A stretch of 37,455 nucleotides of DNA from Candidatus Latescibacterota bacterium. Lineage in GTDB: Bacteria; Latescibacterota; 4484-107; B68-G9. The stretch's first letter is position 1. Every line of letters starts with the position of its first letter. Made by a program: the position numbers and the translations under genes. Positions 12,601 to 37,455 of the stretch are shown here, in pieces. Under the pieces are notes generated by a model. It worked only from the letters and a program-made list of their open reading frames with translations, did not search any database and was not told the DNA's origin. Location of the stretch: NCBI GenBank assembly GCA_003645885.1, contig QNCW01000002.1:1-37455 (forward strand), given 5' to 3'.

Positions 12601-13089
12601 ATGTCATCCTTGATCTTAGGATTTCTCCTCGCCCTCGGGACCTGGGCGGAGGAGGACATATTCCGGAAGAAGCCGGTCACAAGGGAGGAGGCCGTAAAGC
12701 TTTCGGCCATCTTCCCCGGGATCGGGCAGATATCTTCGGGCCACAGGCTGAAAGGTACGGTATTTTTCGTCCTCGAGGTCGCCTCCATAACGGGCACCTT
12801 CCACGCCCACGAGACTTACAGGACCAAGCTCTCGAAGTTCGAGCAGGCTAAGGAGGAATACCTAAGCTCGAGGAGCTACAGCGAAGCCGAGGAGAGGTGG
12901 AGGAAGCTTTCTCGACAGAAGGAGGAGCTGGACAGGCTGAGGAGGACGAGGTACGCCCTGGCATGTTCCTGCCTGGGCGTGTACTTCCTCAGCCTCCTGG
13001 ATGCGGCATTCATCAGCTCCTACGAGGTCTCCCTCGAGCCGGTGAGGATCAAGGATGCCTTGGGGATAACCTTGGAGGTGCGATGGTAA
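12601..13089 (+). CDS. Small two-TM membrane protein with a central coiled-coil (DUF5683-like PG(I/L)GQ motif)
   Basis: Starts 1 nt after the TPR gene stop. Signal-like N-terminus. FPGIGQISSGHRLKGTVFFVLEVASITG hydrophobic segment, charged helical middle (EEYLSSRSYSEAEERWRKLSRQKEELDRLRR), and a second hydrophobic segment ALACSCLGVYFLSLLDAAFI. Confidence 0.7.
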   Translation: MSSLILGFLLALGTWAEEDIFRKKPVTREEAVKLSAIFPGIGQISSGHRLKGTVFFVLEVASITGTFHAHETYRTKLSKFEQAKEEYLSSRSYSEAEERWRKLSRQKEELDRLRRTRYALACSCLGVYFLSLLDAAFISSYEVSLEPVRIKDALGITLEVRW

Positions 13090-21421: not shown

Positions 21422-21469
21422 GGTCTGATCGGGGAGGGGTGGGGTCGGGGAGGCATCAGGTCTTTTTTT
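21422..21469 (+). terminator. Possible intrinsic terminator of the envelope operon: imperfect stem enclosing the G4 motif, then T7
   Basis: GGTCTGAT (21422-21429) can pair with ATCAGGTC (21455-21462) using 6 Watson-Crick and 2 G-U pairs. It is followed directly by TTTTTTT (21463-21469). The 25-nt loop is atypically long. Confidence 0.35.
21431..21450 (+). other. Canonical G-quadruplex motif GGGGAGGGGTGGGGTCGGGG in an intergenic spacer
   Basis: Four G4 runs separated by loops of 1, 1 and 2 nt, read directly from the sequence. Non-coding, 23 nt after the TAG at 21406-21408. Confidence 0.7.
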
Positions 21470-21489
21470 ATCCCAAAACGGGAGGTCAC

Positions 21490-22536
21490 ATGGCCAAGGT
21501 CAGGTTCGGCATCATAGGGTGTGGCCTTGTATCCCATTTCCACGGTAAGGCCATAGCGGCCGCAGAGAACGCCGTCCTGGTAGCATGTTCGGATGTGGTA
21601 AGGCAGAGGGCGGAGGAGTTCGCCCGGACCTACGGGTGCGAGGCGGTGGAAGTTGAGGAACTCCTGGGGAGGGAGGATGTGGATGTTATAAGCGTCCTCA
21701 CTCCCAACCACCTCCACCACGAATATGCCGTGAGGGCCGCCAGGGCGGGGAAGCATGTTCTCGTGGAGAAGCCTCCGGACGTCTCCCTTTCCAAGGTGGA
21801 CATGATGATAGAGGAATGTCGGAGGATGGGCGTAAAGCTCGGGGTCGTCCTGCAGTGCAGGTTCAGGAGGGCTGTGGAGGCTATAAAGGAAGCCGTGGTC
21901 CAGGGGAGGTTCGGGAGGCTCCTTGAGGGGGACGTTTACATGAAGTGGTACAGGCCCAGGGATTACTACCTCGGTTGGAGGAGGGAGAGGAGGTACGGCT
22001 CGGGCACCACCATACAGCAGGCCTTCCATTACATAGACCTCCTCTACTACATCCTCGGTCCGGTCAGGAGGGTGAGGGCCAGGATGACGAACTTCTGCCA
22101 TCCCGAGGCCGACCTCGAGGATACGGTTTTGGCAACGTTGGAATACGAAAGCGGCGCCCAGGGGGTGGTCCTGGCCTCCACCGCATTCTACCCGGGGACA
22201 GACATAAGGCTCGAGATAAACGGGGAGAGGGGGACCGCCGTCATGGAGGGGGAAAGGATAAGGGTCTGGAAGTTCCAGGACGAGAGGCCTGAGGACGAGG
22301 AGATAAGGAACATAGGGAGCGAGTCCGCCATGACCGGCGCAACTGGAGCTGCGGACCTTGGATACCAGGAGCACCAGCTCCTCATAGAGGATATGGCCGA
22401 GGCTGTGGCATCCGGGAGGGAACCCAAGGTCACCGGGATGGATGCCAGGCCGGCCCTCGAGATAGCCCTGGCCATGTACAGGTCCGCCGACACGGGCGAG
22501 GAGGTCGAACTTCCTATTGAGGACTACGAACTATGA
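21490..22536 (+). CDS. Gfo/Idh/MocA-family NAD(P)-dependent oxidoreductase (348 aa)
   Basis: ATG at 21490 preceded by GGAGG (21481-21485). N-terminal Rossmann motif VRFGIIGCGLVSHFH, plus VISVLTPNHLHHEYAVRAARAGKHVLVEKP (the EKP motif of the family). Confidence 0.88.
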   Translation: MAKVRFGIIGCGLVSHFHGKAIAAAENAVLVACSDVVRQRAEEFARTYGCEAVEVEELLGREDVDVISVLTPNHLHHEYAVRAARAGKHVLVEKPPDVSLSKVDMMIEECRRMGVKLGVVLQCRFRRAVEAIKEAVVQGRFGRLLEGDVYMKWYRPRDYYLGWRRERRYGSGTTIQQAFHYIDLLYYILGPVRRVRARMTNFCHPEADLEDTVLATLEYESGAQGVVLASTAFYPGTDIRLEINGERGTAVMEGERIRVWKFQDERPEDEEIRNIGSESAMTGATGAADLGYQEHQLLIEDMAEAVASGREPKVTGMDARPALEIALAMYRSADTGEEVELPIEDYEL

Positions 22537-22541
22537 TCCTC

Positions 22542-22606
22542 AGCCCTCACCTCGGGGACGTAGGTCACAAGGGGAGATGTTGTGGGGTGTTAAGGTGAGG
22601 GCTTTT
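22542..22606 (+). terminator. Perfect 11-bp inverted repeat with 40-nt G-rich loop followed by TTTT; possible terminator or attenuator
   Basis: AGCCCTCACCT (22542-22552) is the exact reverse complement of AGGTGAGGGCT (22593-22603). TTTT lies at 22603-22606. The loop contains three GGGG runs. Confidence 0.35.
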
Positions 22607-22620
22607 CCATTGCGTCCGAG

Positions 22621-23541
22621 ATGGAAGTTGTAAGGAGGTACGAGGGGAACCCGATACTCACACCCGAGCAGGTCCCCTACGATTGCACAGCAGTATATAA
22701 CCCTGCTGCTGTCAAGTTCGATGGTAGGTATATCCTGCTCTTCAGGGTGCAGAGGAAGGATGCAAGGAGCGTGCTCGCCCTGGCGGAGAGCGAGGACGGG
22801 ATCAGGTTCACACCGAGGGAAGGCTTCGCCATGGTCCCCTCCCAGGAGGAGCCCTTCAGGACCTACGAGGAGTACGGGATAGAGGACCCGAGGATAACGA
22901 GGATAGATGACACATATTTTATAACCTACGCCGCATATTCCAGGTTCGGATGCCTCGTGGGCATAGCTAAGACCCAGGACTTCGAGAGGTTCGAGAGGGT
23001 CTGCCTGGCCTCCGAGCCCGACAATAGGAACGCCGTGCTCTTCCCCAAGAGGTTCGGAGGGCTATATGCCAGGTTGGACAGGCCCTCGTACCCTGGGAAG
23101 CCGCCCTCGATATGGATATCCTTCTCCCCCGACCTCGTGCACTGGGGAGGGTCGAGGTGCCTGCTCATGCCGGAGGAATATAGGTGGGATTCCTTCAAGG
23201 TAGGTCCGAGCGTCCCTCCCATAGAGACCCCCGAGGGATGGCTATGCATATATCACGGCGTGTTCATGACCATGAACGGGGCGGTGTACAGACAAGGGGT
23301 CTTCATGCTCGACCTGGAAGACCCTCGCAAGGTCCTGGGAAGATACGAGGGATGGATAATGGCTCCAAAGGAGCCTTACGAGTTCATAGGGTACGTGCCG
23401 AACGTGGTCTTCTGCTGTGGAGCGGTGGAGGAGGAAGATGGGACCTTGAAGCTGTACTACGGAGCTGCGGACCAGTGCATATGCCTTGCGACCGCAAGGC
23501 TGGAAGAACTCGTGTCACTGTGCATTTCGGGAGGAAGCTGA
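22621..23541 (+). CDS. Glycoside hydrolase family 130 protein (beta-mannoside phosphorylase/hydrolase-like), 306 aa
   Basis: RYEGNPILTPEQVPYDCTAVYNPAAVKFDGRYILLFRVQ, GIEDPRITRIDDTYFITYAAYS, NRNAVLFPKRFGGLYARLDRP and LKLYYGAADQCICLA follow the GH130/PF04041 five-bladed-propeller pattern. No signal peptide. Confidence 0.85.
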   Translation: MEVVRRYEGNPILTPEQVPYDCTAVYNPAAVKFDGRYILLFRVQRKDARSVLALAESEDGIRFTPREGFAMVPSQEEPFRTYEEYGIEDPRITRIDDTYFITYAAYSRFGCLVGIAKTQDFERFERVCLASEPDNRNAVLFPKRFGGLYARLDRPSYPGKPPSIWISFSPDLVHWGGSRCLLMPEEYRWDSFKVGPSVPPIETPEGWLCIYHGVFMTMNGAVYRQGVFMLDLEDPRKVLGRYEGWIMAPKEPYEFIGYVPNVVFCCGAVEEEDGTLKLYYGAADQCICLATARLEELVSLCISGGS

Positions 23542-23542
23542 C

Positions 23543-24724
23543 ATGTCCGATGTAAGGGGCCTGGTAGAGCAGATGAGGGGCAACAGGACGAAGCTCGCCA
23601 TATTCAACACGGTAAGGCAGCTCGGCAGGACTACCGCCTTAGATGTGGAGTTCAGGATAGGATTGAGCAGGCCCACGGTGCTTAAATACTTAGAGCAGCT
23701 CGCAGATGACGGGCTCGTGATAGAACACGGCGAGGGGGAACCATCGGGGGGGAGGCCTTCGAGGGTCTTCGAGATAAGGTCGTCGGCCGCCTTCTCGGTC
23801 GGGGTGGACTTCGGAGCACCTGGGCTCACCTTCGCCCTGGTCGACGTCTCCAAGGGGGTGATAGATAAGATGGAGGTAGAGACCGACCTGGAAGAGCCCC
23901 CCTCGCTCACGGCGAAGAGGATGGAGGACGGGATAAGGCAGATAACCCTCAGGAACGAAGTGGAGTTGGAAGAGAGGGTGATAGCGGTGGCGGTAGGGGT
24001 CCCTTGTTACATAGAGAGGGAGACGGAGCTCCTCCAGCCCATACCCAGGCTCCCGCATTGGGAGAACGTGCCCCTGAAGGCCGTGCTGGAGAGGGAGCTC
24101 GAGGTCCCGGTCTACATAGAGACCGGCCCTCGGCTTATGGTGATAGGGGAAAGGGAGTTCGGAGGTGGAGGGGACGTACGGAACATGGTCTACATCCACG
24201 TAAGGGAAGGGATAGGCATGGGGGTCATAGTGGACGGGAGGGTGCTCAAGGGGTCCAAGGAGGACGTGGGGGAGATAGGGCATACGGTGGTCTGGCCTCA
24301 GGGTCCAGTCTGCATATGCGGCAGAAGGGGATGTCTTGAGGTCTTCGCCTCGGAGCCCGCCATGGTGAGGAGGATGGAGGAGATGACGGGAAGGAGGATA
24401 GGACCTCACCAGCTCTTCTCCGAGGTCAGGGATGGGGTTCCCGAGGCAAGGAAGGTAATTGAGGAGGCCATGTACTACTTAGCCATCGCCATAGTGAACG
24501 TCGTGGAGCTGTTCGACCCCGAGGTGGTCGTGGTCGGGGGTAACATCGTGCAAGGTGGGGAGTTCGTGCTCAGGACATTGAGGGAGAAGCTCGAAGGGAT
24601 GAAGCTGGACCACAGGGGCGTGGAGGTCAGGTTTTCGAGCTTAGGTGTCTACGCAGGAGCGTTGGGTGCTGCGAGCTTTGCGATGGAGTCGGCCTTCAAT
24701 CCCTTCCCCGAGGCCAGTGCGTAA
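23543..24724 (+). CDS. ROK-family transcriptional regulator (NagC/Mlc/XylR-like), 393 aa
   Basis: ATG at 23543, 1 nt after the GH130 stop. N-terminal winged-HTH NRTKLAIFNTVRQLGRTTALDVEFRIGLSRPTVLKYLEQLADDGLV. ROK glycine-rich core VGVDFGAPG. Zinc motif GHTVV....CICGRRGCLE. Confidence 0.88.
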   Translation: MSDVRGLVEQMRGNRTKLAIFNTVRQLGRTTALDVEFRIGLSRPTVLKYLEQLADDGLVIEHGEGEPSGGRPSRVFEIRSSAAFSVGVDFGAPGLTFALVDVSKGVIDKMEVETDLEEPPSLTAKRMEDGIRQITLRNEVELEERVIAVAVGVPCYIERETELLQPIPRLPHWENVPLKAVLERELEVPVYIETGPRLMVIGEREFGGGGDVRNMVYIHVREGIGMGVIVDGRVLKGSKEDVGEIGHTVVWPQGPVCICGRRGCLEVFASEPAMVRRMEEMTGRRIGPHQLFSEVRDGVPEARKVIEEAMYYLAIAIVNVVELFDPEVVVVGGNIVQGGEFVLRTLREKLEGMKLDHRGVEVRFSSLGVYAGALGAASFAMESAFNPFPEASA

Positions 24725-27443: not shown

Positions 27444-27566
27444 ACGAGCTGGAGGCGATAGGTTGCCTTTATGCCGGGGCTTTGGTGGCCGCTGGAGAGG
27501 TCTTTGGATCAGCCCCAATTTGGGGGCTCCTGAGGCCCTCGGCTGTTTAGGCCGGAATAGAGAACT

Positions 27567-28040
27567 ATGGTCCACAGGCTGAGGCTTAGACCCTACCATC
27601 CGCCTTATATCCTGGCGTATCTGGGTTCGAAGGCCGACATGAGGCCAGCGATGCGATATGCTGTAGAAAAGGTCAGGGAAGGGGGGCCTGGGCTGGAGGT
27701 GGAGCTGGTGGAAGGGTTCGACGACATCTGTATGCGCTGTGAGAAGCTCGAGAAACGCCCTTCAGGTTCGGTGTGGGGTGAGGGATATAGCTGCCCTACG
27801 GCCGAGGACCCTGACATGGTAAGGAGCATAGCCGATGAGAACGAGGCGATCCTGAAGGCCATCGGGCTCAAGTTTGGGGATGTGCTCAGGGCGCGCGAGC
27901 TTTTCCCGCTCTTTGCTGATAAGCTACCCGAGCTTAAGAGCTATCCTCAGTGCGGTAAGGACTTCATACAGGAGAACTATCTGAAGGGCATGGAGCTTCT
28001 TCTAAGGCTCTGGGATAGAGAGGAGGGACGATGGCCGTAG
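27567..28040 (+). CDS. Small Cys-containing cytoplasmic protein, possibly DUF1284-like (157 aa)
   Basis: ORF with the local codon habit. LRPYHPPYILAYL... and DDICMRCEKL...YSCP...YPQCGKD cysteine pattern. The family call rests on weak recollection only. First gene after a 123-nt spacer. Confidence 0.5.
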   Translation: MVHRLRLRPYHPPYILAYLGSKADMRPAMRYAVEKVREGGPGLEVELVEGFDDICMRCEKLEKRPSGSVWGEGYSCPTAEDPDMVRSIADENEAILKAIGLKFGDVLRARELFPLFADKLPELKSYPQCGKDFIQENYLKGMELLLRLWDREEGRWP

Positions 28041-30460
28041 GTTGCCTTACAGGAAACGGGAAGGGAAGGCCGGTCGAGGGAAGTTACAGGTTGTTGAGGA
28101 GGGGGACGGACAAGGAGCTTCCCCCCGACCTCGAGGGGGAGGAGAGGGGGAGGATAAGCTTCGGGGAGGGGATACTGACGGACGGCGACACCTCGACCTC
28201 CCTCGGATGGAAGGGAACGACCCTGGGGGAGGTCGGCTTGGACTTGGCGATCGAGCTGGGAGGGAAGTACTTCCTCGATAGGGTGGTTTTGAAAGGCGCT
28301 TCCGGGATAGGCCTGGTGGAGGTGTACGCAGGGGGGCTTCCTGCAGGCAGGGTCGGAGATGAGGAGGGGCCGGACTTAGGCGAAAGGATAGATGTGGATC
28401 TGGGGGTGGAGGCGGACGAGATCGTGGTCCACGTCCGCTCCTTCAACAGGGATGTGAAGCTGGGGGAGGTGGAGGTATGGGGTGCGAGCCCACGTGAGCC
28501 CCTTCTCTTCCCCGTGCCCAGGAAGGTGGAGGTCGAGGAGGGGCCCCCTCCCGAGGTATGCGAGGTGGTGGCCGGGGACGACGAAGAAGCGAGGTTCGCC
28601 GCAGAGCTGCTCGCTCGAAGGCTCGAGGAGGAGTTCGGAAGGAGGCCCAAGATAGTCGGTAAGGCCGGTGGGGAGGGTTGCCTGGTCGTGTCCAAGGACC
28701 AGGCCATACCGAAGGAGGGTTACAGGATAGAGTTGGGAGGAAGGAGCCTGCTTGCCGCATCCGACAAGAGGGGGTTGGTATACGGTGCCGAAACCCTGGT
28801 CCAGCTCTTGAGGTCTGGGGTCAGGTGTCGTGTGGAGGACGGACCCGGAATGGAGCTCAGGGGAGTGCACCTCTACATGCCGGCCAGGAAGGATTTGGAC
28901 TTCTTCAAGCGCCTTGTGAGGTACCTTATAGTTCCTATGAAGTTCAACACCATATTCATTCAAGTGACGGCAGGGATGGAGTTCGAGAGGAGGCCGGAGA
29001 TAAACAGGGCATGGGAGGAGGCCAACAGGAGGGCTGCCGAGGGGAAGGCACCACCCGTGCCCCACGGGGAACTGGGGGGAGGTAGCTACATAACCAAGGA
29101 AGAGGTCAGGGAGATAGTTGAGTATGCGAAGGGTTACGGATTGGAGGTGATACCCGAGGTCCAGTCCCTGAGCCATGTCACATATCTGACCCTCGCCTAC
29201 CCCGAGATAGCCGAGGACAGGCCGGAGGAGTCGGTGGTGTCTCCTTATTCCCACTGTTACTGTCCGCTCCATCCGGAAAGCAGGAGGATAGTGTTCGACA
29301 TGGTGGACGAGGTTGTGGAGGTGTTCGAGCCCAGGTACGTCCACATGGGCCACGACGAGGTGTACCACCTCGGCATATGTCCGAGGTGCAGGGGGAAAAG
29401 CAGGGCCGAGCTTTACGCAAAGGACGTGAACGAGATATACTCTTACCTCAAGGGGAAGGGACTTGGGATGATGATATGGGCGGACATGCTCCAGGCCTTC
29501 AGGCCTTACAGCTGCCCCGAGGCCTCGGACCTCATACCCAAGGACATAATACTGCTGGACTTCGTTTGGTACTTCAACATGGACGAGGACATAGAAGATG
29601 TGCTCCTTGAAAAGGGGTTCAAGGTGATAATGGGGAACTTCTACTCCTCCCACTACCCGAGGTTCCCCTCCAGGAGGAGGAAGGTGGTGGGGGCGGAGGT
29701 CTCCACGTGGTGCGGATGCGACGAGAGGAGCCTCGGGATGAAGGGGAAGATATACGACTTCGTGTATTCGGCTAACATGATGTGGTGGGAGGGGTACAGG
29801 GACGAACTCAGGTGGACGATGACCAGGAAGGTGTCGGAGATCATGCCCCACATAAGGTCCGGGCTCGGGGGGAGGGAGGACGAGGTCAAGGAATGGTTGC
29901 CCATAAAGCTCGAGGGGAACTCCCCCATGAGGGGGAAGGAGTTCGACCTTTCGTGCGTCCCCAGGGGGAGGGTCGAGATGAGGGGGGTTCCGTTCGAGAT
30001 AGGCGACAAGCTCGTGGCCGTCGAGGGGGGAAGGAAGAGGTGGAGGGTGTATCCCCAGAGGGAGGAGGTCGAGGTAGGGCTCGAGCTGGACGGAATAGTG
30101 TTCCTGCACGCATGCTCCAGGAACTGCTTCAGAGGGGAGGTGCTCGGGCTTTACAGGATGAACTACGAGGACGGCTCGGAGGAGGAGGAGATCGTATACG
30201 GCTGGAACATCCTCGAGTGGGACAGGAGGTACGCAAGGCCGATGTCCCACGTGCTCCACAGGCATTCCGGGTACATAGGCACGTACCCAGCGGACCCGAT
30301 GTGGCAGGGTAAGGACATGGAAGGAAGGGATGTGACCCTCTACGGTTACACGTGGAGGAACCCTCATCCGGAAAGGAAGGTGGTCTCCGTAACCTTGGAG
30401 GCTTCGGACTCCACCGACTCGGCCGTAATCCTTCTGGCCCTGACGGGGAGGAGGTCTTGA
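28031..30460 (+). CDS. GH20-like beta-N-acetylhexosaminidase-type glycosidase with an N-terminal galactose-binding/discoidin-like domain (809 aa), no signal peptide
   Basis: ATG preceded by GAGGAGGGA, overlapping the previous gene by 10 nt. LRGVHLYMPARKDLDFFKRLVRYLIVPMKFNTIFIQV, EVREIVEYAKGYGLEVIPEVQSLSHVTYLTLAYPEI and YVHMGHDEV (adjacent Asp-Glu) parallel the GH20 TIM-barrel motifs (...MLD..R.F......K.N..H.H..D, VIPEID.PGH, H.GGDE). Confidence 0.6.
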   Translation: MAVGCLTGNGKGRPVEGSYRLLRRGTDKELPPDLEGEERGRISFGEGILTDGDTSTSLGWKGTTLGEVGLDLAIELGGKYFLDRVVLKGASGIGLVEVYAGGLPAGRVGDEEGPDLGERIDVDLGVEADEIVVHVRSFNRDVKLGEVEVWGASPREPLLFPVPRKVEVEEGPPPEVCEVVAGDDEEARFAAELLARRLEEEFGRRPKIVGKAGGEGCLVVSKDQAIPKEGYRIELGGRSLLAASDKRGLVYGAETLVQLLRSGVRCRVEDGPGMELRGVHLYMPARKDLDFFKRLVRYLIVPMKFNTIFIQVTAGMEFERRPEINRAWEEANRRAAEGKAPPVPHGELGGGSYITKEEVREIVEYAKGYGLEVIPEVQSLSHVTYLTLAYPEIAEDRPEESVVSPYSHCYCPLHPESRRIVFDMVDEVVEVFEPRYVHMGHDEVYHLGICPRCRGKSRAELYAKDVNEIYSYLKGKGLGMMIWADMLQAFRPYSCPEASDLIPKDIILLDFVWYFNMDEDIEDVLLEKGFKVIMGNFYSSHYPRFPSRRRKVVGAEVSTWCGCDERSLGMKGKIYDFVYSANMMWWEGYRDELRWTMTRKVSEIMPHIRSGLGGREDEVKEWLPIKLEGNSPMRGKEFDLSCVPRGRVEMRGVPFEIGDKLVAVEGGRKRWRVYPQREEVEVGLELDGIVFLHACSRNCFRGEVLGLYRMNYEDGSEEEEIVYGWNILEWDRRYARPMSHVLHRHSGYIGTYPADPMWQGKDMEGRDVTLYGYTWRNPHPERKVVSVTLEASDSTDSAVILLALTGRRS

Positions 30461-31356
30461 TGCCCACATACGTCAGCTTCTACTTGGACGACGTGGCCCC
30501 CTACGTCGCATCCGGGGGGGAGCTCTTGCCCGTGGACGCCTCGGCCCTGGTCGACGTCCTGGAGTACATAAGGCAGGAAGGCATCCGTGGAGCCATATCC
30601 GTGATACCAGGGATGTACACCTTGCTTTTGAGGCCCAAAAACTCCCACGAAAGGAGGTTCGCGGAGGTCGTGGCTCGGCTCGGGGAGTACCCGGTGGACC
30701 CACATATGGAGATAATGACCCACCAAAACTTGTTCGACTTCTCGAGGATGGAGCAGACCGATGGACCGTCGGAGGCCGAGTGGCTGGACGACCCCGAGGT
30801 CGGGGTGGAGGAGTACAAGAGATACTTCCTCGATACGATAATTGCGGGAAGGGAGCTGGGTGTGAGGTACACCGGCCTTTCCACCCCGGGGACACATCCG
30901 GATATGAACCCCAAAGTCTGGGAGGCCCTCCTAAGGCTTGCGGAGGAGGGGGAGTTTCCGAACAGTGCGGTGCCCGTGTTTGCCACCATAGAGGAGGGCG
31001 ACGTCCCCATGGAGCCCAGGGTCAGGGCTCGGAGGGATAAGTTCGTCGTCCTCGACATGCCGTCCGGCGTCTGGGACTACCTCGCATCCTGGAGGAACTC
31101 CCCTGATTGGGTGAACGTGGACCACTACGTGGACGGGGAGGGGGGAGGACATCTGGCCTCCCTGATAAAGGCTGGGTCCTTCATGGCCATCTTCCACATG
31201 CACTGGCAGGGTCTGAACCCCCAGACCGGCCTGGGATGGAAGCCATTTCAGGAGATGATAGGGAGGCTGAAGTCTATGTTCGGAGGGATGATAGAATGGA
31301 AGAGGCCGAGCGAGATAGCTTTAGAGTTCGCAAAAGGAGGTGGGCCATCGTGGTGA
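30460..31356 (+). CDS. Hypothetical cytoplasmic protein (298 aa); possibly a divergent deacetylase-type (beta/alpha)-barrel
   Basis: TGATG overlap with the GH20-like gene (ATG at 30460; the ORF-track start at 30352 is inside the previous CDS). N-terminal YVSFYLDDVAP faintly recalls the NodB TFDD motif. The functional guess is weak. Confidence 0.6.
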   Translation: MPTYVSFYLDDVAPYVASGGELLPVDASALVDVLEYIRQEGIRGAISVIPGMYTLLLRPKNSHERRFAEVVARLGEYPVDPHMEIMTHQNLFDFSRMEQTDGPSEAEWLDDPEVGVEEYKRYFLDTIIAGRELGVRYTGLSTPGTHPDMNPKVWEALLRLAEEGEFPNSAVPVFATIEEGDVPMEPRVRARRDKFVVLDMPSGVWDYLASWRNSPDWVNVDHYVDGEGGGHLASLIKAGSFMAIFHMHWQGLNPQTGLGWKPFQEMIGRLKSMFGGMIEWKRPSEIALEFAKGGGPSW

Positions 31357-32438
31357 TCGGTGTCCCCAAAGAGGTAAAGGAAGGGGAGAGGCGTGTGGGC
31401 ATGACCCCAGCGGGGGTCCGCTCCTTAGTCTCGGAGGGACACAGGGTCCTGGTCGAGGGCGGGGCGGGGGTGGGAAGCGGGATAGATGACGAGGATTATG
31501 CATCGGCCGGAGCCGAGGTGGTCTCCACCGCGCAGGAGGTCTGGGAGAGGGCGGACATGATAGTCAAGGTTAAGGAGCCGGTCAGCTCCGAGTACAGGTT
31601 CCTGAGGGAGGGGCTCGTCCTCTTCACGTACCTGCACCTGGCCGCCAATCCGGAGCTCACATGGAAGCTCGTGGATACCGGGGTCACGGCCTTGGCCTAC
31701 GAGACCGTGGAGACGGAAGATGGTTACCTCCCACTGCTGGCGCCCATGAGCCAGATAGCTGGAAGGATGTCCGTCCAGGTCGGGGCAAGGTTGCTCGAGG
31801 CGGACTGTGGGGAGGGGATACTGCTGGGAGGGATACCGGGGGTCCCTCCAGCAGATGTCGTCGTAATAGGGGCGGGGGCCGTGGGGAGCAACGCAGCAAG
31901 GATAGCCGTGGGAATGGGTGCCAAGGTGACGGTCCTGGATGTGGACGGCCGCAAGCTTAGGCACCTGGAGGAGGTGCTCCACGGCCGCCTGATCACCTTG
32001 AACTCCCATGCGGAGAACATAGAAAGGGCGGTGTTGAAGGCCGACCTGGTCATAGGTTGCGTGTACAAGGTGGGGGAGAGGGCTCCCGTGCTCGTCGGCG
32101 AGGATCTGGTGCGCTCGATGAGGAAGGGAGCTGTGATAGTAGATGTTGCGGTGGACCAAGGTGGATGCGTCGAGACGAGCCGCCCCACGAGCTTCGAATC
32201 CCCGACCTTCGTCGTGCACGACGTCGTCCACTACGGGGTCTCGAACATGCCGGCTGCCGTTCCGAGGACCAGCACCCGTGCCCTCACCGACGTGACCCTC
32301 CCCTACATCCTGAAGATGGCCAACATGGGGGTGGAGAGGGCCTTAGAGGACGACCCATCCCTCAGAAGGGGGCTGAACGTCCACAGAGGCTCTATATTGC
32401 ATCCCGGAGTCGCCGCAAGCGTGGGGAGGTACGGATGA
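31350..32438 (+). CDS. ald: Alanine dehydrogenase
   Basis: GTG start at 31350 or 31353 with AAAGGAGG at 31333-31340. [39 protein letters not shown], NAD-binding [28 protein letters not shown], and [16 protein letters not shown] are the classic Ald/PNT-type signatures. Confidence 0.92.
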   Translation: [362 protein letters not shown]

Positions 32439-33283
32439 ACCTTCGGATAAGGCAGATGAGGCCGTCGGATGTCGTGGCCGTCGTCCGCATAGCCAACCAG
32501 GCGTTCCTCGAGACCGCCAGGCTCGGTTGGCTCATGGGCAGGAGGGCGGTCGATAGGCTCGTGGAGGACAGGGAGTGCCTTTTCGTGGCCGAGGCAGGTG
32601 GGGAGGTGGTGGGCTTCGTGGTCGGGGGATGCAGCGGGGACAGGGCGACCATAGGCTGGATAGCGGTCCATCCGGACTACTGGGGGAGGGGGATAGGAGG
32701 GATGCTCCTGGGGGCGGTCGAGGAGGTGGCCCGCAGGAAGGGGATCGGGGTGGTGGAGACCGGAACACCGTTCGCCCGCTCCTTCTACGAAAAGCACGGC
32801 TTCAGGTGCGTAGGGGTGGACCGTTGTATGGTTTTGGAACTTGTGGGAAGGGCCATATCCCTCCCCGAGGGTGTGCGGGTCCGCACCTTGATGTTGGACG
32901 ACATCGGGTCGCTTATCGAACTTATGGGGGAGGACGAATGGCTCAGGTTCTCGAGGGCGTTCTTTTCGGCTTACGAGGACGACCCTGAAAAGGCGATAAT
33001 GGTAACATCTAAGGAAGGGACGACCTTAGGGGTTGCGGTGGGAGAGAACGATCGTACTTACGGTGAGCTTGTGACGCTCACCTACATGTTCGTCGGAAGG
33101 GAAGGGGATGCTATGAAGGTGCTGGATTCCATGGCATACCTTGCATCCTCGAGGGGCCATAGGTGGCTCGGGGTGAGGTTGCCGCTTGAGGGAACGTCCC
33201 AGGAGGAGCTCGAGGGGAGGGGATGGGAGGATGCCAAGCTTCCATCCTTCTGGACCAGGTACAGGATGAGGAAGGAGATCTGA
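32435..33283 (+). CDS. GNAT-family N-acetyltransferase (282 aa, GNAT domain plus C-terminal extension)
   Basis: ATGA overlap with ald. IRQMRPSDVVAVVRIANQAF...VVGFVVGG...IGWIAVHPDYWGRGIGGMLLGAVEEVARRKG...FYEKHGF is the acetyl-CoA-binding Q/R-x-x-G-x-G/A motif context. Confidence 0.85.
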   Translation: MNLRIRQMRPSDVVAVVRIANQAFLETARLGWLMGRRAVDRLVEDRECLFVAEAGGEVVGFVVGGCSGDRATIGWIAVHPDYWGRGIGGMLLGAVEEVARRKGIGVVETGTPFARSFYEKHGFRCVGVDRCMVLELVGRAISLPEGVRVRTLMLDDIGSLIELMGEDEWLRFSRAFFSAYEDDPEKAIMVTSKEGTTLGVAVGENDRTYGELVTLTYMFVGREGDAMKVLDSMAYLASSRGHRWLGVRLPLEGTSQEELEGRGWEDAKLPSFWTRYRMRKEI

Positions 33284-33293
33284 GGAGGTCAGG

Positions 33294-34709
33294 ATGAAGG
33301 CAGGGGCTGGTAAGGTCAGGATAACGCCGCCTGTGGGCATACCCATACTGGGTCACCTGTTCAGGGTGTCCGAGGGGGTGCACGACGACCTGTGGGCCAA
33401 GGTCCTGCTCTTCGAGGAGGGAGGGGAGGTCGGGGGGTTGGTCGCCCTGGACCTGGCTTGGCCGATGCCTGAGGGGGACTACGTCAAGATAAGGGATGCC
33501 ATCCAGGATGCGACCGGCATCCCGGGCCAGAACTTCATGGTAAGCTGCACCCATTGCCATTCCGGCCCTGCGTTCAAGCCCCATCCGGGCTTTCCCATCC
33601 CCCTCAAGCGACAGAGGGAACTGATAGAGCCTTGGGTGGAGGAGCTGCCGCACAAGGTTGCGAAGGCGGCCGAGCTTGCGGCCTCCGACATGAGGGAAGT
33701 GGAGGTCAGGTTCGGGAGGGTCCCCATCACCGGGCTCACGTACAACCGCAGGAAGCGAATACCTGAGGGGGTGGCATCCCTCATCAACGTCTCGGCCAAG
33801 GAAAGCAGGTACTATTACGGGGATGCATCCGAGATACCCGAAAGCATAAGGCAGCAGTACGTCCACTGGGGCATGCCGAGGCAGATGGCCGAGGAGCTGC
33901 CCCCCTCCATACCTGACGGTCCGATAGATCCGGACCTGACGGTGATCTGCTTCGATGGTGTGGCGATACTGGTGAACTTCGCATGTCATGCGGTCGCCAC
34001 CGCGCCGCCCGTTCCGAACCTCATATCGGCAGGCTTTCCGGGGTACATGGCGGAGCTGGTTGAGCAGGCCACGGGTGCCGTCTGCCTTTTCACCACGGGT
34101 GCGAGCGGGGACATCAGACCTTACAGGTCGAAGCCGAGGGGGTTCGAGGAGGTCGAAAGGATAGGCCTTGCGCTCGCTGCGGGCGTCATGAAGGCCAGGG
34201 AGGGGGCCCTGCCCATCGAGGACAGGAAGGTCAAGGTCGCAAGCGAGTTCGTCGAGGTCCCCCTGAGGGAGTACCCTCCGAAGGACGAGGTTTCCCGCAT
34301 CCTGAAGGAGATGGAGGAGGAGTTCGAAAGGGCGAGGTCCCAGGGCAGGTACAAGGATGCTAAGCGCTTGCTCGACAGGATGAACGCCCTCGACTATCCT
34401 ATAAGGTACTTCGACTGGATAGACCAGAGGGGGACCGTAAGGATAGAGCTTCAGGCCATCTGGATAGGGGACGTCGTGCTCCTGAGCATCCCCAACGAGG
34501 TGAACGTGGGCCTGGGGCTGGAGCTCAAGGAGAGGGCGGGGACGGATAAGCTCGTCCTTGTGACCCTGGCAAACGGCTTCTACATGTACCTGCTGAAGAG
34601 GGAGGAGTACGAGGAGGGGGGATACGAGGAGGCCGCATGTCGCTTCGCACCTGGTTCGGGCGAGATGGTGGTCGAGGCAGCCGTCAGGCTCGTGGGAGGA
34701 AGGAGGTAA
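33294..34709 (+). CDS. Neutral/alkaline ceramidase-like amidohydrolase, paralog 1 (471 aa), no signal peptide
   Basis: MKAGAGKVRITPPVGIPILGH....HDDLWAKVLLFEEGGEVGGLVALDL, VSCTHCHSGP, LVNFACHAV....NLISAGFPGY and LANGFYMYLL..EEYEEGGYE follow the Ceramidase_alk N-terminal-domain pattern (TP..G..m.GY, THTHSGP, H.tS...N.liS.D, gY..t.eEY). Confidence 0.7.
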   Translation: MKAGAGKVRITPPVGIPILGHLFRVSEGVHDDLWAKVLLFEEGGEVGGLVALDLAWPMPEGDYVKIRDAIQDATGIPGQNFMVSCTHCHSGPAFKPHPGFPIPLKRQRELIEPWVEELPHKVAKAAELAASDMREVEVRFGRVPITGLTYNRRKRIPEGVASLINVSAKESRYYYGDASEIPESIRQQYVHWGMPRQMAEELPPSIPDGPIDPDLTVICFDGVAILVNFACHAVATAPPVPNLISAGFPGYMAELVEQATGAVCLFTTGASGDIRPYRSKPRGFEEVERIGLALAAGVMKAREGALPIEDRKVKVASEFVEVPLREYPPKDEVSRILKEMEEEFERARSQGRYKDAKRLLDRMNALDYPIRYFDWIDQRGTVRIELQAIWIGDVVLLSIPNEVNVGLGLELKERAGTDKLVLVTLANGFYMYLLKREEYEEGGYEEAACRFAPGSGEMVVEAAVRLVGGRR

Positions 34710-34712
34710 AAG

Positions 34713-36011
34713 ATGACCGCCGGCACATCGGCCGTATGCATAACCCCGAGCGTCGGCCTGGACAACATGGGGGATTATCTCCGCCTCAAGCCCGCTTTGG
34801 GGGTGGAGGACGAACTCTTCGCCAAGGCCCTCGTCCTGGAGGACGGCGAGAGGAAGGTGGCCATAGTTACTGCGGACATCATAGCCTTTACGGACGAACT
34901 TACCAAGGAGACCCGGAGGAGGATAGAAGAACTTACGGGTATAAAGGGCGAAAACGTGCTCCTCAGCGCATCCCATACCCACTCCTCTCCTGCGGTGGCG
35001 GAGAAGGACGGGGCATCGAGGGATTACCTCACCGAGCTTTCCAAGAAGATAGCAGGTGCTGTGTTCATGGCGGACAGGAACAGGAGGGAGGCCCTGGTGG
35101 GGTGCGGTGTGGGTGAGGCCAAGGTGAGCATAAACAGGTGGCAGAGGAAGGATGGTGGGGTTCGCTGGGGGCCGAACCCGGAAGCTCCTGTCGACCACGA
35201 CGTCCTGGTGATGCGTGTGGACGATGCCCGTGGGAGGCCCATGGCCATACTGGTGAACTTCGCATCCCATCCCTCCATACTTGGGGCCGACAACCTCCTT
35301 TATTCCGGGGACTACGTCAGCCACGTCCAGGGGGTGATAGAGAAGGTATACGACGGAGACGTGACGGCGATGTTCACGACCGGCGCCGGAGGGGACGTTA
35401 AGATAGCTGTGTTGACGGAGGACGGAGCTAACTTCCGCTACGGCGATCCTGAGGACTGCCGCCGCTTCGGGACAATTATAGCAGCCGAGGCCTTAAAGGT
35501 CGCACAGTTGACGAAGCCGAAGCAGGTCCGGAGGGTGGAAGCCAAGACCAGGAAGGTCGAGCTTCCCCTCGTCGAGCTTCCGAGCGCCGATGAGATCGAG
35601 GCCGAGCTCCGCAGGCTCGAAAGGGCAGAGCCGTCCGTAGAAAGGTCGCTCGAGATCAACTGGGCCAGGGACACCCTCGAGGCCCTGAGGGAGGGGAGGG
35701 CTCCCAAGAGCATCCCTGCAGAGGTCCAGCTCCTGAGGATAGGGGAGGATGTTGCCTTCTTCGCAGTGCCGGGGGAGCTATTCGTGGAGGTTGGAATTAA
35801 ACTTAAGCAGGCCATGAAAGTTCCGTGCCCGTTCGTAGTGGCATACGCAAACGGGAGCCTGGGCTACCTTCCTTCCAAGCGCGCCGAGGAGTGGGGCTGG
35901 TGTAGGCACGACACCTCTTACAGGCTCTCAGGAAGGCCGGCCAACTTTTCCGGGGCTGTGGAGGAAGTGCTTCTGGAGGCCCTCTTCGGGATGATGGAGG
36001 AGGGAAGATGA
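34713..36011 (+). CDS. Neutral/alkaline ceramidase-like amidohydrolase, paralog 2 (432 aa)
   Basis: GTSAVCITPSVGLDNMGDY...EDELFAKALVLEDGERKVAIVTADI, LSASHTHSSP, LVNFASHPSILGADNLLYSGDY, YANGSLGYLPS. Shares a 19-nt identical string with paralog 1 (33966-33984 = 35247-35265). Confidence 0.75.
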   Translation: MTAGTSAVCITPSVGLDNMGDYLRLKPALGVEDELFAKALVLEDGERKVAIVTADIIAFTDELTKETRRRIEELTGIKGENVLLSASHTHSSPAVAEKDGASRDYLTELSKKIAGAVFMADRNRREALVGCGVGEAKVSINRWQRKDGGVRWGPNPEAPVDHDVLVMRVDDARGRPMAILVNFASHPSILGADNLLYSGDYVSHVQGVIEKVYDGDVTAMFTTGAGGDVKIAVLTEDGANFRYGDPEDCRRFGTIIAAEALKVAQLTKPKQVRRVEAKTRKVELPLVELPSADEIEAELRRLERAEPSVERSLEINWARDTLEALREGRAPKSIPAEVQLLRIGEDVAFFAVPGELFVEVGIKLKQAMKVPCPFVVAYANGSLGYLPSKRAEEWGWCRHDTSYRLSGRPANFSGAVEEVLLEALFGMMEEGR

Positions 36012-37243
36012 AGAGGATGGAGTCGCTCGCCAGGAGGGTGTTCGTCGGGGGGCGAGAGCTTCCCCCCTTGCCGAGGCGCCCCTCCAAGGTCCTGGAGGCG
36101 GAAGTACCGCCGGGCAGGCGCCTGCAAGCGGGTGCTGCCAAGGTGGACGTCACTCCGTCCGGTCCTGTGACCATACGGGGATTCACTCCCAGGACGTCCA
36201 CAGGGGTCCACAGGAACCTGTACGTGAGGGCCCTGGTCCTGGACGACGGGGAGGAGAAGTTGGCGGTGCTCAGCTGGGAGAAGCTCAACCTCTACCACAC
36301 ACCAGATGGGTTCGAGAGGGTCGCAGACCTCAGGGAGAGGATAAAAGAGCTTATCGGGATACCTCCAGAAAACGTGCTGATAAACGCTTCCCACACCCAC
36401 TCGGGATGCGAGGGGCCTTTCGAGGAAGCCTCGGTTGAGGCCGTGGAACTTGCCTGGAGGAACATGCGGGAGGCGAGGATAGGGGCGGGCTCGAAGATGA
36501 TATACGGCATAGGCTCGAACAGGAGGCTTCCGGACGGGACGGGGCTTTGGGGATGCAACCAGCCTAACCCAGAGGGCATCATGGACAACGAATGTGGAGT
36601 CGTGAGGATCGAGGACATGCAACGCAAGATCTTAGCTGTCCTGATCAACTACTCAGCCCATCCCTCGGTGCTGGACGCCAACAACACCCTCTTGAGCGGA
36701 GATTACGCAGGGGTCGCCATGGCCGAGGTGGAGGATGCCCTCGAAGGGTCCGTGGCCCTCTTCCTCCAGGGGTGTGCCGGAGACACCGGAACCCACACTT
36801 TCAGGAGGAAGAGGAGCATTTCGGAGGCGGAGAGGTTGGGAAGGAAGCTTGCAAAGGAGGTCGTCGGGATCGTCAAGCATATAGACGTCCTGCCCTGGGT
36901 CCCGTTGAAGGCCAAGAGCAAATTCATCGAGCTCCCACGGAAGGGGGGGAACGGGATAAAGGACGAAATTCAGGTTATGGCCATGGACGACTGCGCCATC
37001 GCCTGCGTCGGCTCGATGGAAGCATATGTGGACATAGGTTTGAAGGTAAAGCAGGCATCCCCCTTCAAGCATACTTTCACGGTGGCCTACTCGAACGGAC
37101 CTTGGCTTGGCTACCTTCCGTCGGAGCACGGGTTTGCGGTCAACGATCCGGACGCAAGGGAGACCCCCTTCGCCCCCGATGCGGTGAAGGTGCTGATCTT
37201 TGAGTGCACGGAGCTATTGAAGGAGGTACGTGCTGAGCTATGA
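36008..37243 (+). CDS. Neutral/alkaline ceramidase-like amidohydrolase, paralog 3 (411 aa)
   Basis: ATGA overlap with paralog 2. AGAAKVDVTPSGPVTIRGF...NLYVRALVLDDGEEKLAVLSWE, INASHTHSGC, LINYSAHPSVLDANNTLLSGDY, YSNGPWLGYLPS. Confidence 0.75.
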   Translation: MKRMESLARRVFVGGRELPPLPRRPSKVLEAEVPPGRRLQAGAAKVDVTPSGPVTIRGFTPRTSTGVHRNLYVRALVLDDGEEKLAVLSWEKLNLYHTPDGFERVADLRERIKELIGIPPENVLINASHTHSGCEGPFEEASVEAVELAWRNMREARIGAGSKMIYGIGSNRRLPDGTGLWGCNQPNPEGIMDNECGVVRIEDMQRKILAVLINYSAHPSVLDANNTLLSGDYAGVAMAEVEDALEGSVALFLQGCAGDTGTHTFRRKRSISEAERLGRKLAKEVVGIVKHIDVLPWVPLKAKSKFIELPRKGGNGIKDEIQVMAMDDCAIACVGSMEAYVDIGLKVKQASPFKHTFTVAYSNGPWLGYLPSEHGFAVNDPDARETPFAPDAVKVLIFECTELLKEVRAEL

Positions 37244-37455
37244 AGGGGATAACTTACGAGGTCAGGGGCTCCACCGTATATGCCCTCGAGGGAGGAGAGG
37301 AGGCGGGCCGGGTCGAGGTCCCCGAGATAGAGCTTCACTGGGCCGACGGGGTCTACGTGAGGCTGGCGGGGATAGCAGGGGTGTGGACCAGGGAGGACCT
37401 CAGGGGGAGGGGGATAGCATCGAGGATGATGGAGGAGGCCAAGAGGTTCGCCATC
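37240..37455 (+). CDS. GNAT-like acetyltransferase, 5' partial (runs off the window)
   Basis: ATGA overlap with the preceding stop. The open frame to the window end reads MKGITYEVRGSTVYALEGGEEAGRVEV...LAGIAGVWTREDLRGRGIASRMMEEAKRFAI, and R-G-R-G-I-A is a GNAT motif-A-like element. Confidence 0.55.
   Translation, partial: MKGITYEVRGSTVYALEGGEEAGRVEVPEIELHWADGVYVRLAGIAGVWTREDLRGRGIASRMMEEAKRFAI

Follow-up and report, generated by a model that had tools for sequence, protein, structure and literature searches.

A compact operon of a Latescibacterota bacterium joins short ceramidase-fold amidases to glycan- and amine-processing enzymes: a candidate system for N-acylated amino sugars

Introduction

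Neutral ceramidases, represented by the solved enzymes of Pseudomonas aeruginosa (CDase; 2ZWS and 2ZXC) and human (ASAH2; 4WGK), are zinc amidases of the PF04734 superfamily with sizes of 646-688 aa, in which a C-terminal beta-sandwich accompanies the catalytic domain. No functional study of the short ceramidase-like proteins of bacteria was found in the open-access full-text literature. Here, we analyze an operon that encodes three diverged subfamilies of such proteins side by side at the end of a 37,455-nt stretch of DNA (hereafter the window) from Candidatus Latescibacterota bacterium, an uncultured organism of hydrothermal sediment. The window is the entire contig QNCW01000002.1 (C2) of a 1.9-Mb metagenome-assembled genome (MAG; GCA_003645885.1, termed G000) that is 84% complete. 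Besides the amidases (g6, g7, and g8), the nine genes of the operon (Table 1) encode a DUF1284-like protein (g1), a GH20 glycosidase (g2), a protein predicted to have the fold of CE4/NodB deacetylases (g3), an L-alanine dehydrogenase (AlaDH; g4), and two GNAT N-acetyltransferases (g5 and g9).

Single steps of amino-sugar metabolism that could engage such enzymes have precedents. Amino sugars are catabolized following the logic of NagA/NagB or the archaeal Dac deacetylase route, lysosomal heparan sulfate breakdown depends on HGSNAT, which acetylates glucosamine so that a glycosidase can cleave it, and Tpa-Ald operons combine a pyruvate aminotransferase with an alanine dehydrogenase. Eis acetyltransferases, including those of Mycobacterium tuberculosis (4JD6 and 3R1K), acetylate the amines of aminoglycosides, that is, of amino sugars. 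Deacetylation before deamination, re-N-acetylation on behalf of a glycosidase, and AlaDH working with pyruvate transamination are thus known individually, whereas the amidases of the operon analyzed here are of other folds than those of the known routes. To our knowledge, no described pathway combines these enzyme families, and in the open-access literature we came across no account of this gene combination, of proteins of the g3 family, or of short ceramidase-fold amidases acting in connection with sugars.

Results

Organization of the operon

The nine open reading frames (ORFs) all have clean translations; they are co-directional and run from 27567 to the window end, as a sequence-only reading of this DNA, made with no database search, had described. 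The junctions given in that reading were recovered as well: g1 and g2 overlap by 10 nt (28031-28040), g2 and g3 by TGATG (30458-30462), and g3 and g4 by 7 nt (31350-31356), ATGA overlaps are found at 32435, 36008, and 37240, and the other gaps are 10 nt (33284-33293) and 3 nt (34710-34712). Every protein of the operon falls in a known superfamily, and the earlier calls of GH20, AlaDH, two GNATs, and three ceramidase-like amidases are borne out by Pfam and NCBIfam. The claim that these proteins lack signal peptides is supported by inspection and a crude hydropathy scan alone, in which neither a signal peptide nor a transmembrane segment was found in any of them. A promoter/terminator consensus scan of 27300-37455 gave no signal above shuffled sequence.

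The contig L048 of a JGI metagenome is 100% identical to the window over g5-g9, and a Logan contig of 8570 nt from a separate study covers 28118-36687 with 30 substitutions. As these two independent data sets share the gene order, the order is not an assembly artefact. Beyond the window, L048 provides g9 in full (374 aa), followed by genes for a fourth amidase paralog (L048:6155-7567), which is 54% identical to g6, and for a metallophosphoesterase. Near-identical DNA (at least half of the sampled words) was detected in 16 public runs, which are metagenomes of hydrothermal vents, sediments, and marine sites produced by many studies.

Parts of the operon recur in several phyla

The sequence-only reading had treated the operon as one linked cytoplasmic gene set whose conservation elsewhere could be surveyed. 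The nine-gene order itself was found only in the near-identical DNA of L048 and the Logan contig, while sub-modules recur in shuffled order, namely g3 with an Eis-like GNAT, g3 with GH20, g7 with g8, and g3-GNAT-amidase-AlaDH. They were seen in the MAGs of Poribacteria, Planctomycetota, Latescibacterota, and "Bathyarchaeota", as well as in those labelled as Gemmatimonadota (Table 1). The recurrent partners include glycan-cleaving proteins (GH20, heparinase II/III-like, beta-helix, and GH43-like), hydrolases of amide bonds (ceramidase-fold, CE4-fold, M28, beta-lactamase-fold, amidohydrolase_2, creatininase, and CN-hydrolase), N-acetyltransferases (Eis-like and plain GNATs), and enzymes for amino-group disposal (AlaDH, DegT and class-III aminotransferases, and opine dehydrogenase). 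Polysaccharide deacetylase, a xylose-isomerase-like TIM barrel, and a sugar-binding protein are further neighbours, and no lipid enzyme was found among the recurring neighbours of the examined loci. Because the partners combine glycan cleavage, amide hydrolysis, N-acetyl transfer, and amino-group disposal, we propose with moderate confidence that the operon serves to process, in the cytoplasm, N-acylated amino sugars derived from complex glycans; surface polysaccharides, polymers similar to glycosaminoglycans, and the material of cell walls are examples of such glycans. Its most likely task is to strip and recycle groups attached to the sugars by amide bonds, and not to degrade sphingolipids.

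The orthologs are distributed unevenly. Among the 151 genomes of a phylum-level sample, close g3 orthologs were detected only in G024, which bears the Latescibacterota label, and G102. The former possesses orthologs of g2 (61% identical), g3 (67%), and g7 (63%) together, albeit on separate short contigs, with an ABC sugar-binding protein directly upstream of g3; its contigs L028, with two amidase genes, and L215, with the g2 ortholog, carry no other operon genes. No ortholog of g2 or g3 and no close ortholog of g7 was found in two genomes of the same genus as G000 (G014 and G019; 89% and 99% complete). The joint presence or absence of the three favours the proposed module.

An alternative is that independent soluble enzymes are juxtaposed in a compact region with no pathway in common. 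The whole 37-kb contig is one-stranded and tightly packed, so that the overlaps are the local norm and not peculiar to the operon. The unique order of the nine genes, the dispensability of g1 in a sister strain (see below), the heterogeneous neighbours of g7 orthologs, and the same-genus genomes just described point in the same direction. Yet the same rare families re-associate, in other orders, in at least five phylum-level labels, and chance re-association is unlikely because only 68 of 1.84 billion cluster representatives match g3 (E<=0.001). We therefore consider the juxtaposition of unrelated enzymes unlikely.

Several observations on the related loci deserve a record. Two contigs binned as Bathyarchaeota, L135 (LUCD01000031.1, 'Candidatus Bathyarchaeota archaeon B26-1') and L138, carry orthologs of the genes of this bacterial operon (g5, 72% identical; g6, 71%; g3, 61%) plus a beta-helix protein 53% identical to that of the window, owing to either inter-domain transfer or mis-binning. 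The beta-helix gene (L135:6794-8455) lies between the g6 ortholog and g3, and its product corresponds to part of the surface protein encoded at 12897-15644 of the window. As L135 embeds this ortholog between an amidase gene and g3, the extracellular enzymes of the window and the cytoplasmic operon are suggested to belong to one utilisation system. On another contig of G000 (C47:9826-12816), an M28/DUF4910 gene, cut by the contig end, encodes a protein 70% identical to the copy next to g3 in L059, and a xylose-isomerase-like TIM barrel near it is 59% identical to its L135 counterpart; part of the gene network may thus sit on C47. Just upstream of g3 in L136 (9742-9990; G102:C13), there are two short fragments, 91% identical to the DegT of L090, which look like a decayed aminotransferase gene.

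Three subfamilies of short ceramidase-fold amidases

The scores of g7 and g8 against PF04734 (47.6 and 50.6 bits) are above the cut-off of 32.1 bits, and that of g6, which is homologous to g7, is below it (27.6 bits). In the search against NF041649, the NCBIfam equivalog model for neutral ceramidase (ceramidase_neut), the three proteins score 16.7-18.9 bits, whereas the cut-off is 1200. These scores assign g6-g8 to the PF04734 superfamily but argue against their being neutral-ceramidase equivalogs. The profile of g7 orthologs aligned with human nCDase (4wgk; E 4e-16) and Pseudomonas CDase (2zws; E 2.8e-10), matching the HxH motif, the second His, the Glu, and the Tyr. All 16 sequences compared, which include g6, g7, g8, and the fourth paralog, have H88, H90, R142, H186, E355, and Y385 (in the numbering of g7). 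Judging from the alignment, all the amidase paralogs have the complete zinc and catalytic residue set of the neutral-ceramidase type, with the zinc ligands and the catalytic Arg kept in a homologous catalytic domain. In contrast to neutral ceramidases, g6-g8 are only 411-471 aa, their match ends inside the catalytic domain, and they have no C-terminal beta-sandwich, signal peptide, anchor, hydrophobic N-terminus, or transmembrane segment. An N-terminal extension of ~55 residues is conserved in g8, which has no helical insert. g6, g7, and g8 are mutually 26-30% identical, whereas each has orthologs of 61-75% identity in other lineages (Table 1); they are thus ancient subfamilies and not recent duplicates.

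The family of short ceramidase-like proteins is widespread, with matches in 138 of the 151 sampled genomes and up to 11 matches per genome. At 64 loci of distant amidases, the neighbours were screened by tblastn with the window proteins only, and in at least 8 loci from metagenomes, a Gfo/Idh/MocA gene is the direct neighbour of a distant ceramidase-fold gene. A second amidase locus of this MAG (G000:C79; L030:2043-8394, minus strand) consists of co-directional genes for a DegT aminotransferase, a 389-aa beta-helix protein, a GH43/GH32-like protein, a ceramidase-fold amidase, a creatininase-family amidohydrolase, and an Amidohydro_2 protein, in this order. In L028 (G024:C451), a further cluster with an amine/amide theme, two ceramidase-fold genes, one of which has an in-frame TGA, bracket genes for a DegT aminotransferase, an octopine/nopaline-type dehydrogenase, and a CN-hydrolase.

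The sequence-only reading had drawn on the ceramidase-like nature of g6-g8 and on the combination of hexosaminidase and ceramidase in glycosphingolipid breakdown. In a model along these lines, a glycosphingolipid or another N-acylated long-chain amine would be turned over inside the cell: GH20 would take off the sugar head, the amidases would break the N-acyl linkage, and the GNATs and AlaDH would deal with the amine or with a base derived from alanine. The amidases are indeed true homologs of neutral ceramidases with the full zinc and catalytic set, and bacterial ceramide synthases are GNAT-like. Nevertheless, short and soluble proteins with no C-terminal domain, scoring 17-19 bits against an equivalog cut-off of 1200, lend no weight to ceramidase activity, and the conserved neighbours are all sugar, amine, or amide enzymes. 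The glycosphingolipid logic thus finds no support in the gene neighbourhoods, which hold glycan and amino-sugar enzymes and none for lipids.

The same reading had advised a search for serine palmitoyltransferase (Spt)-like genes, for which we used NF047600, the model of the CFB-type enzyme, with a cut-off of 640 bits (TIGR01825 was dropped as a proxy, as it proved to be a general model of the BioF/Kbl family). No alpha-oxoamine synthase or Spt-like gene was found in G000, at its completeness of 84%. No relative passed 640 bits, three more distant relatives scored 577-584 bits, and both same-genus genomes contain partial ORFs whose best model is NF047600 but which stay below the cut-off (332.7 bits over 221 profile positions in G014). 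Sphingolipid synthesis may therefore occur in the lineage. The amidase family is decoupled from such genes: it is present, with 2-6 matches, in eight of the nine relatives with no alpha-oxoamine synthase match, four of these eight being 95-98% complete, and was not found in three relatives that have the synthase. Altogether, we regard sphingolipid turnover by the operon as very unlikely. On C149 of G014 (L210:1113-4199), the partial Spt-like ORF directly follows MlaE-MlaF-MlaD-like lipid-transport genes, making this a possible locus for sphingolipids or related lipids in the genus.

A rare CE4/NodB-fold family paired with an Eis-like acetyltransferase

No match to g3 was found in the sequences of Pfam, NCBIfam, or the PDB, and PF01522 gave none at E<=0.01. 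An AlphaFold (AF2) model built from 19 homologs had a pLDDT of 95.9 and resembled 3rxz (Z 20.2), HP0310 (19.6), ArnD (18.3), PuuE (18.1), and the N-deacetylase domain of NDST1 (18.0) in Foldseek/VIA comparisons, with superpositions spanning 229-250 residues and a Foldseek probability of 1.00. On this model, g3 is assigned to the CE4/NodB deacetylase fold, represented in the size range of ~300 aa by the peptidoglycan deacetylase HP0310 (3QBU), the deformylase ArnD (8T0J), the allantoinase PuuE (3CL6), and the N-deacetylase domain of human NDST1 (8CCY), an enzyme of heparan sulfate. It shares with them the Asp-Asp pair ending strand 1 (LDD; D10 and D11) and conserved His and Glu residues at the ends of the barrel strands; D10, D11, E84, H88, and H248 are conserved in the family. 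The Asp-His-His metal triad canonical for CE4 belongs to the motifs TFDD and H-S/T-x-x-H; in g3, the H-x3-H is replaced by E84-x3-H88 (E84-I-M-T-H88), so that, as read from the motifs, one metal ligand may be Glu. We regard g3 as a divergent, sugar de-N-acylase-like enzyme, with a putative activity suggested by the modelled fold.

The g3 subfamily of the operon is cytoplasmic, unlike most of the distant members of the family. The distant homologs (L139-L208; Planctomycetota, Verrucomicrobiota, and Bacteroidota) mostly have twin-arginine signal peptides and look like an exported branch. The neighbours of the wider family (31-38% identity) include GH10, polysaccharide deacetylases, Gfo/Idh/MocA, GH18, and GH123. 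In Bacteroidales, the distant homologs are preceded by a gene for ~456 aa, which is probably behind the GH10 matches on 10 of the 97 tallied neighbours. On contig C25 of G000 (L047:1495-6244), two distant g3 paralogs of ~400 aa (27-33% identical), neither assigned to a Pfam family, lie on either side of genes for a sulfatase and a xylose-isomerase-like TIM barrel.

The full g9 gene (L048:4505-5629) encodes two GNAT stretches detected by Pfam, and a sequence search of the PDB gave no match. Its AF2 model is of moderate confidence (pLDDT 70.5), with TM about 0.45, and full-length Foldseek matches were obtained for 2ozg, 4my3, 4jd6, and 6rft (Eis-family E 1e-14 to 6e-12). The model thus suggests an Eis-like acetyltransferase with a GNAT-GNAT-C-terminal-domain architecture, sharing the three domains of Eis over the full length. 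g9 is distinct from Eis in being paired with a protein of a deacetylase fold: its ortholog directly follows g3 in L059, L090, L129, L131, and L136. The GNAT domain of g5 lies at residues 42-124 (PF13508, 68.4 bits; PF00583, 64.9 bits), and the nearest solved relatives of g5 are generic GNATs (YpeA), with a weak match to MshD; a 72% identical ortholog in L135 is near M28/DUF4910, the g6 ortholog, and g3.

The pairing of g3 and the GNATs could be interpreted as an exchange of N-acyl groups during biosynthesis or remodelling of an amino-sugar metabolite or surface glycan, in the manner of NodB/NodA, LpxC/LpxD, or MshB/MshD, with AlaDH supplying alanine and the amidases editing the product. The g3-Eis-like GNAT pair is the tightest conserved one, adjacent in five loci. 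In G102 and L090, it is accompanied by genes for an NAD-epimerase/dehydratase, a DegT protein, and a TPP enzyme, as is typical of nucleotide-sugar tailoring, and the weak MshD match of g5 agrees with this role. Against it, no glycosyltransferase, nucleotidyltransferase, or flippase was found in any examined locus, a biosynthetic route offers no obvious task for as many as three to four hydrolytic amidases, and the cytoplasmic GH20, the polysaccharide-lyase-like proteins, GH130, and ROK point to breakdown. We judge a biosynthetic role to be unlikely.

The GH20 glycosidase and the alanine dehydrogenase

g2 matches PF00728 (77.5 bits; cut-off 22.3) and PF02838 (GH20b; 46.7 bits; cut-off 26.1), and the catalytic pair is intact (HMGH-D442-E443 at the canonical H-x-G-x-D-E position). 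Among the 36 solved GH20 chains that match g2, TrdeGH20 and Niako3494 are the best for the catalytic domain (E 1.8e-21). These two enzymes, of the CUPP group 19.1/60.1 (9FYL/9FYM and 8BAL, respectively), have a zinc-binding Cys cluster at the place where g2 has C451-x-x-C454, 8-11 residues past the catalytic pair, and their group releases the disaccharides N-acetyllactosamine (LacNAc) or lacto-N-biose (LNB) or shows weak activity on 6-sulfo-N-acetylglucosamine (6S-GlcNAc) (PMC11776370). The likeness is distant: the D-E pair followed by C-x-x-C is common to both, but the enzymes of the group are single-domain proteins of ~330-380 aa, whereas g2 has GH20b and extra regions of ~150 N-terminal and ~270 C-terminal residues. 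The GH20 gene that adjoins g3 in L133, of a Planctomycetales MAG, is its ortholog over the full length (Table 1).

g4 passes the equivalog model TIGR00518 (522.7 bits; cut-off 391.85) and matches both PF05222 and PF01262 in full length. Its orthologs in L059 and L129, 76% identical, lie beside g3, GNAT, and amidase genes.

The conserved position of AlaDH is also in line with catabolism of peptide-bearing cell-wall fragments (muropeptides, pseudomurein, or similar necromass). GH20 would then remove N-acetylglucosamine (GlcNAc) or N-acetylgalactosamine, the amidases would cut sugar-peptide and peptide amides, AlaDH would take the L-alanine, and the GNATs would acetylate amines or D-amino acids. 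M28/DUF4910 aminopeptidase-like and beta-lactamase-fold proteins (of the PBP/D-aminopeptidase type) recur nearby, the modelled fold of g3 is similar to that of HP0310 (Z 19.6) and other peptidoglycan deacetylases, and necromass is a substrate in the hydrothermal or marine sediments in which the organism is found. Peptidoglycan, however, is a poor fit to the heparinase II/III-like lyases, DegT, and GH43-like proteins, the GH20 is nearest to the LacNAc/LNB/6S-GlcNAc group, the locus has no canonical recycling genes, and the Amidase_2/3 families are not involved. Cell-wall catabolism is thus an unlikely explanation of the operon, to the same degree as the juxtaposition of unrelated enzymes.

The head gene and the upstream context

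g1 is probably not a core member of the operon. Its score against PF06935 (21.8 bits) is under the cut-off of 25, its nearest clusters in the ESM Atlas are DUF1284 (score 0.91), and no homolog was found in any related locus examined. In a variant contig of run X7, 27455 is joined to 28031 via six other letters, with the 123-nt spacer and all of g1 gone, which puts g2 ~18 nt downstream of a SpeE-like gene. The depth in this run is 15.8 for the contig lacking g1 and 5.4 for that bearing it, and a similar joint of low depth (27556 to 28021) is found in run X4. The upstream genes listed in Table 1 on the basis of Pfam matches give the context; co-transcription with the operon is not implied.

Table 1. 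Genes of the operon, upstream features of the window, and gene orders in related loci. Percentages are identities to the window counterparts.
Feature	Source	Positions	Strand	Description or gene order
g1	window	27567..28040	+	157-aa Cys-containing DUF1284-like protein, strain-variable head gene
g2	window	28031..30460	+	809-aa GH20 glycosidase, predicted cytoplasmic; GH20b and catalytic domain, unassigned N- and C-terminal regions
g3	window	30460..31356	+	298 aa, no Pfam family; CE4/NodB-fold deacetylase-like (predicted), rare family
g4	window	31350..32438	+	L-alanine dehydrogenase (AlaDH), GTG start
g5	window	32435..33283	+	282-aa GNAT N-acetyltransferase; C-terminal half with no assignment
g6	window	33294..34709	+	471-aa ceramidase-fold zinc amidase, subfamily A
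g7	window	34713..36011	+	432-aa ceramidase-fold zinc amidase, subfamily B
g8	window	36008..37243	+	411-aa ceramidase-fold zinc amidase, subfamily C
g9	window	37240..37455	+	first 72 codons of 374-aa Eis-like GNAT; gene cut by contig end
Gfo/Idh/MocA oxidoreductase, GH130, ROK-family protein	window	21439..24724	+	upstream context
Surface protein	window	12897..15644	+	lectin/beta-helix/disaggregatase-related; context
L129	Poribacteria MAG			nitroreductase-g3-g9-g6(63%)-AlaDH(76%)
L059	metagenome contig			M28/DUF4910-nitroreductase-g3-g9-AlaDH-beta-helix-unknown-g7(70%)
L133	Planctomycetales			g3-GH20(48%, full length)-two heparinase II/III/DUF4962 proteins
L131	Planctomycetota			class-III aminotransferase-g3-g9-polysaccharide deacetylase-GH20-like
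L090	metagenome contig			amidase-heparinase II/III-DegT-g3-g9-beta-lactamase-fold-g8(61%)
L136	G102, Gemmatimonas label			epimerase-DegT remnants-g3-g9-beta-lactamase-fold-TPP enzyme
L135	'Bathyarchaeota' MAG			g5(72%)-M28/DUF4910-TIM barrel-g6(71%)-beta-helix-nitroreductase-g3
L050	metagenome contig			g7(68%)-g8(64%)

Discussion

The tight packing, the folds and active sites of the products, an AlaDH at the equivalog level, and the shuffled recurrence of the genes in several phyla are what the proposed role in processing N-acylated amino sugars is built on here. In the proposed route, GH20 would remove terminal units of the N-acetylhexosamine type from imported oligosaccharides and may release a disaccharide. 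g3 and three to four ceramidase-fold amidases would hydrolyze different amide bonds on the sugars, with N-acetyl groups at different ring positions and aminoacyl or other N-acyl substituents as the candidate targets. The alanine removed by AlaDH would be a direct cleavage product of an N-alanyl or peptide substituent or, alternatively, be produced by a pyruvate-dependent aminotransferase that deaminates exposed sugar amines. The two GNATs would re-acetylate free amines, which would make the residues cleavable by GH20, as the mechanism of the latter needs a 2-acetamido group, or would neutralize reactive amines. One amidase may replace NagA in the deacetylation of GlcNAc(-6-P): NagA was not found in this MAG, while a NagB-like gene was.

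Several points weigh against such a route. The absence of NagA proves little since the MAG is 84% complete. The order of the nine genes is unique to this organism, and neither a transporter nor an aminotransferase was found inside the operon. The neighbourhoods of close g7 orthologs are heterogeneous: of the 38 neighbours tallied, no more than 2 belong to any one family, and g7 alone thus gives no clue to the pathway. As many of the related contigs are short, few cases of co-occurrence could be counted, and the loci do not constitute independent observations. In addition, a deacetylase beside acetyltransferases fits a biosynthetic N-acyl exchange equally well, and DegT, the epimerase, and the TPP enzyme in some loci look biosynthetic.

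A more specific form of amino-sugar processing, which we advance as a speculation with a low but appreciable chance of being correct, is an 'N-acyl editing' route. Position- or acyl-specific zinc amidases and g3 would strip N-acyl groups of diverse kinds, among them multiple acetamido groups or alanyl substituents of di-amino or uronic sugars, the substrates being sugars of microbial surface glycans. The Eis-like GNAT would then re-acetylate the 2-amine, so that the substrate-assisted GH20 can cleave the residue, and AlaDH would close a pyruvate/alanine transamination cycle that clears the remaining sugar amines.

With g3, a rare new family of the CE4 fold is defined together with its fixed partnership with an Eis-like acetyltransferase, and the operon results in a short list of soluble, directly assayable enzymes. 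Short cytoplasmic proteins are annotated by the thousand as 'neutral ceramidase N-terminal domain' proteins. If these proteins are amidases of amino sugars or glyco-amides, an entire branch of the superfamily of ceramidases carries the wrong name, and they become candidates for a step still missing from the breakdown, in sediments, of microbial glycans with N-acyl groups, which make up a large pool of organic nitrogen. If the editing route is true, it would provide the first physiological function for this widespread branch of short cytoplasmic proteins.

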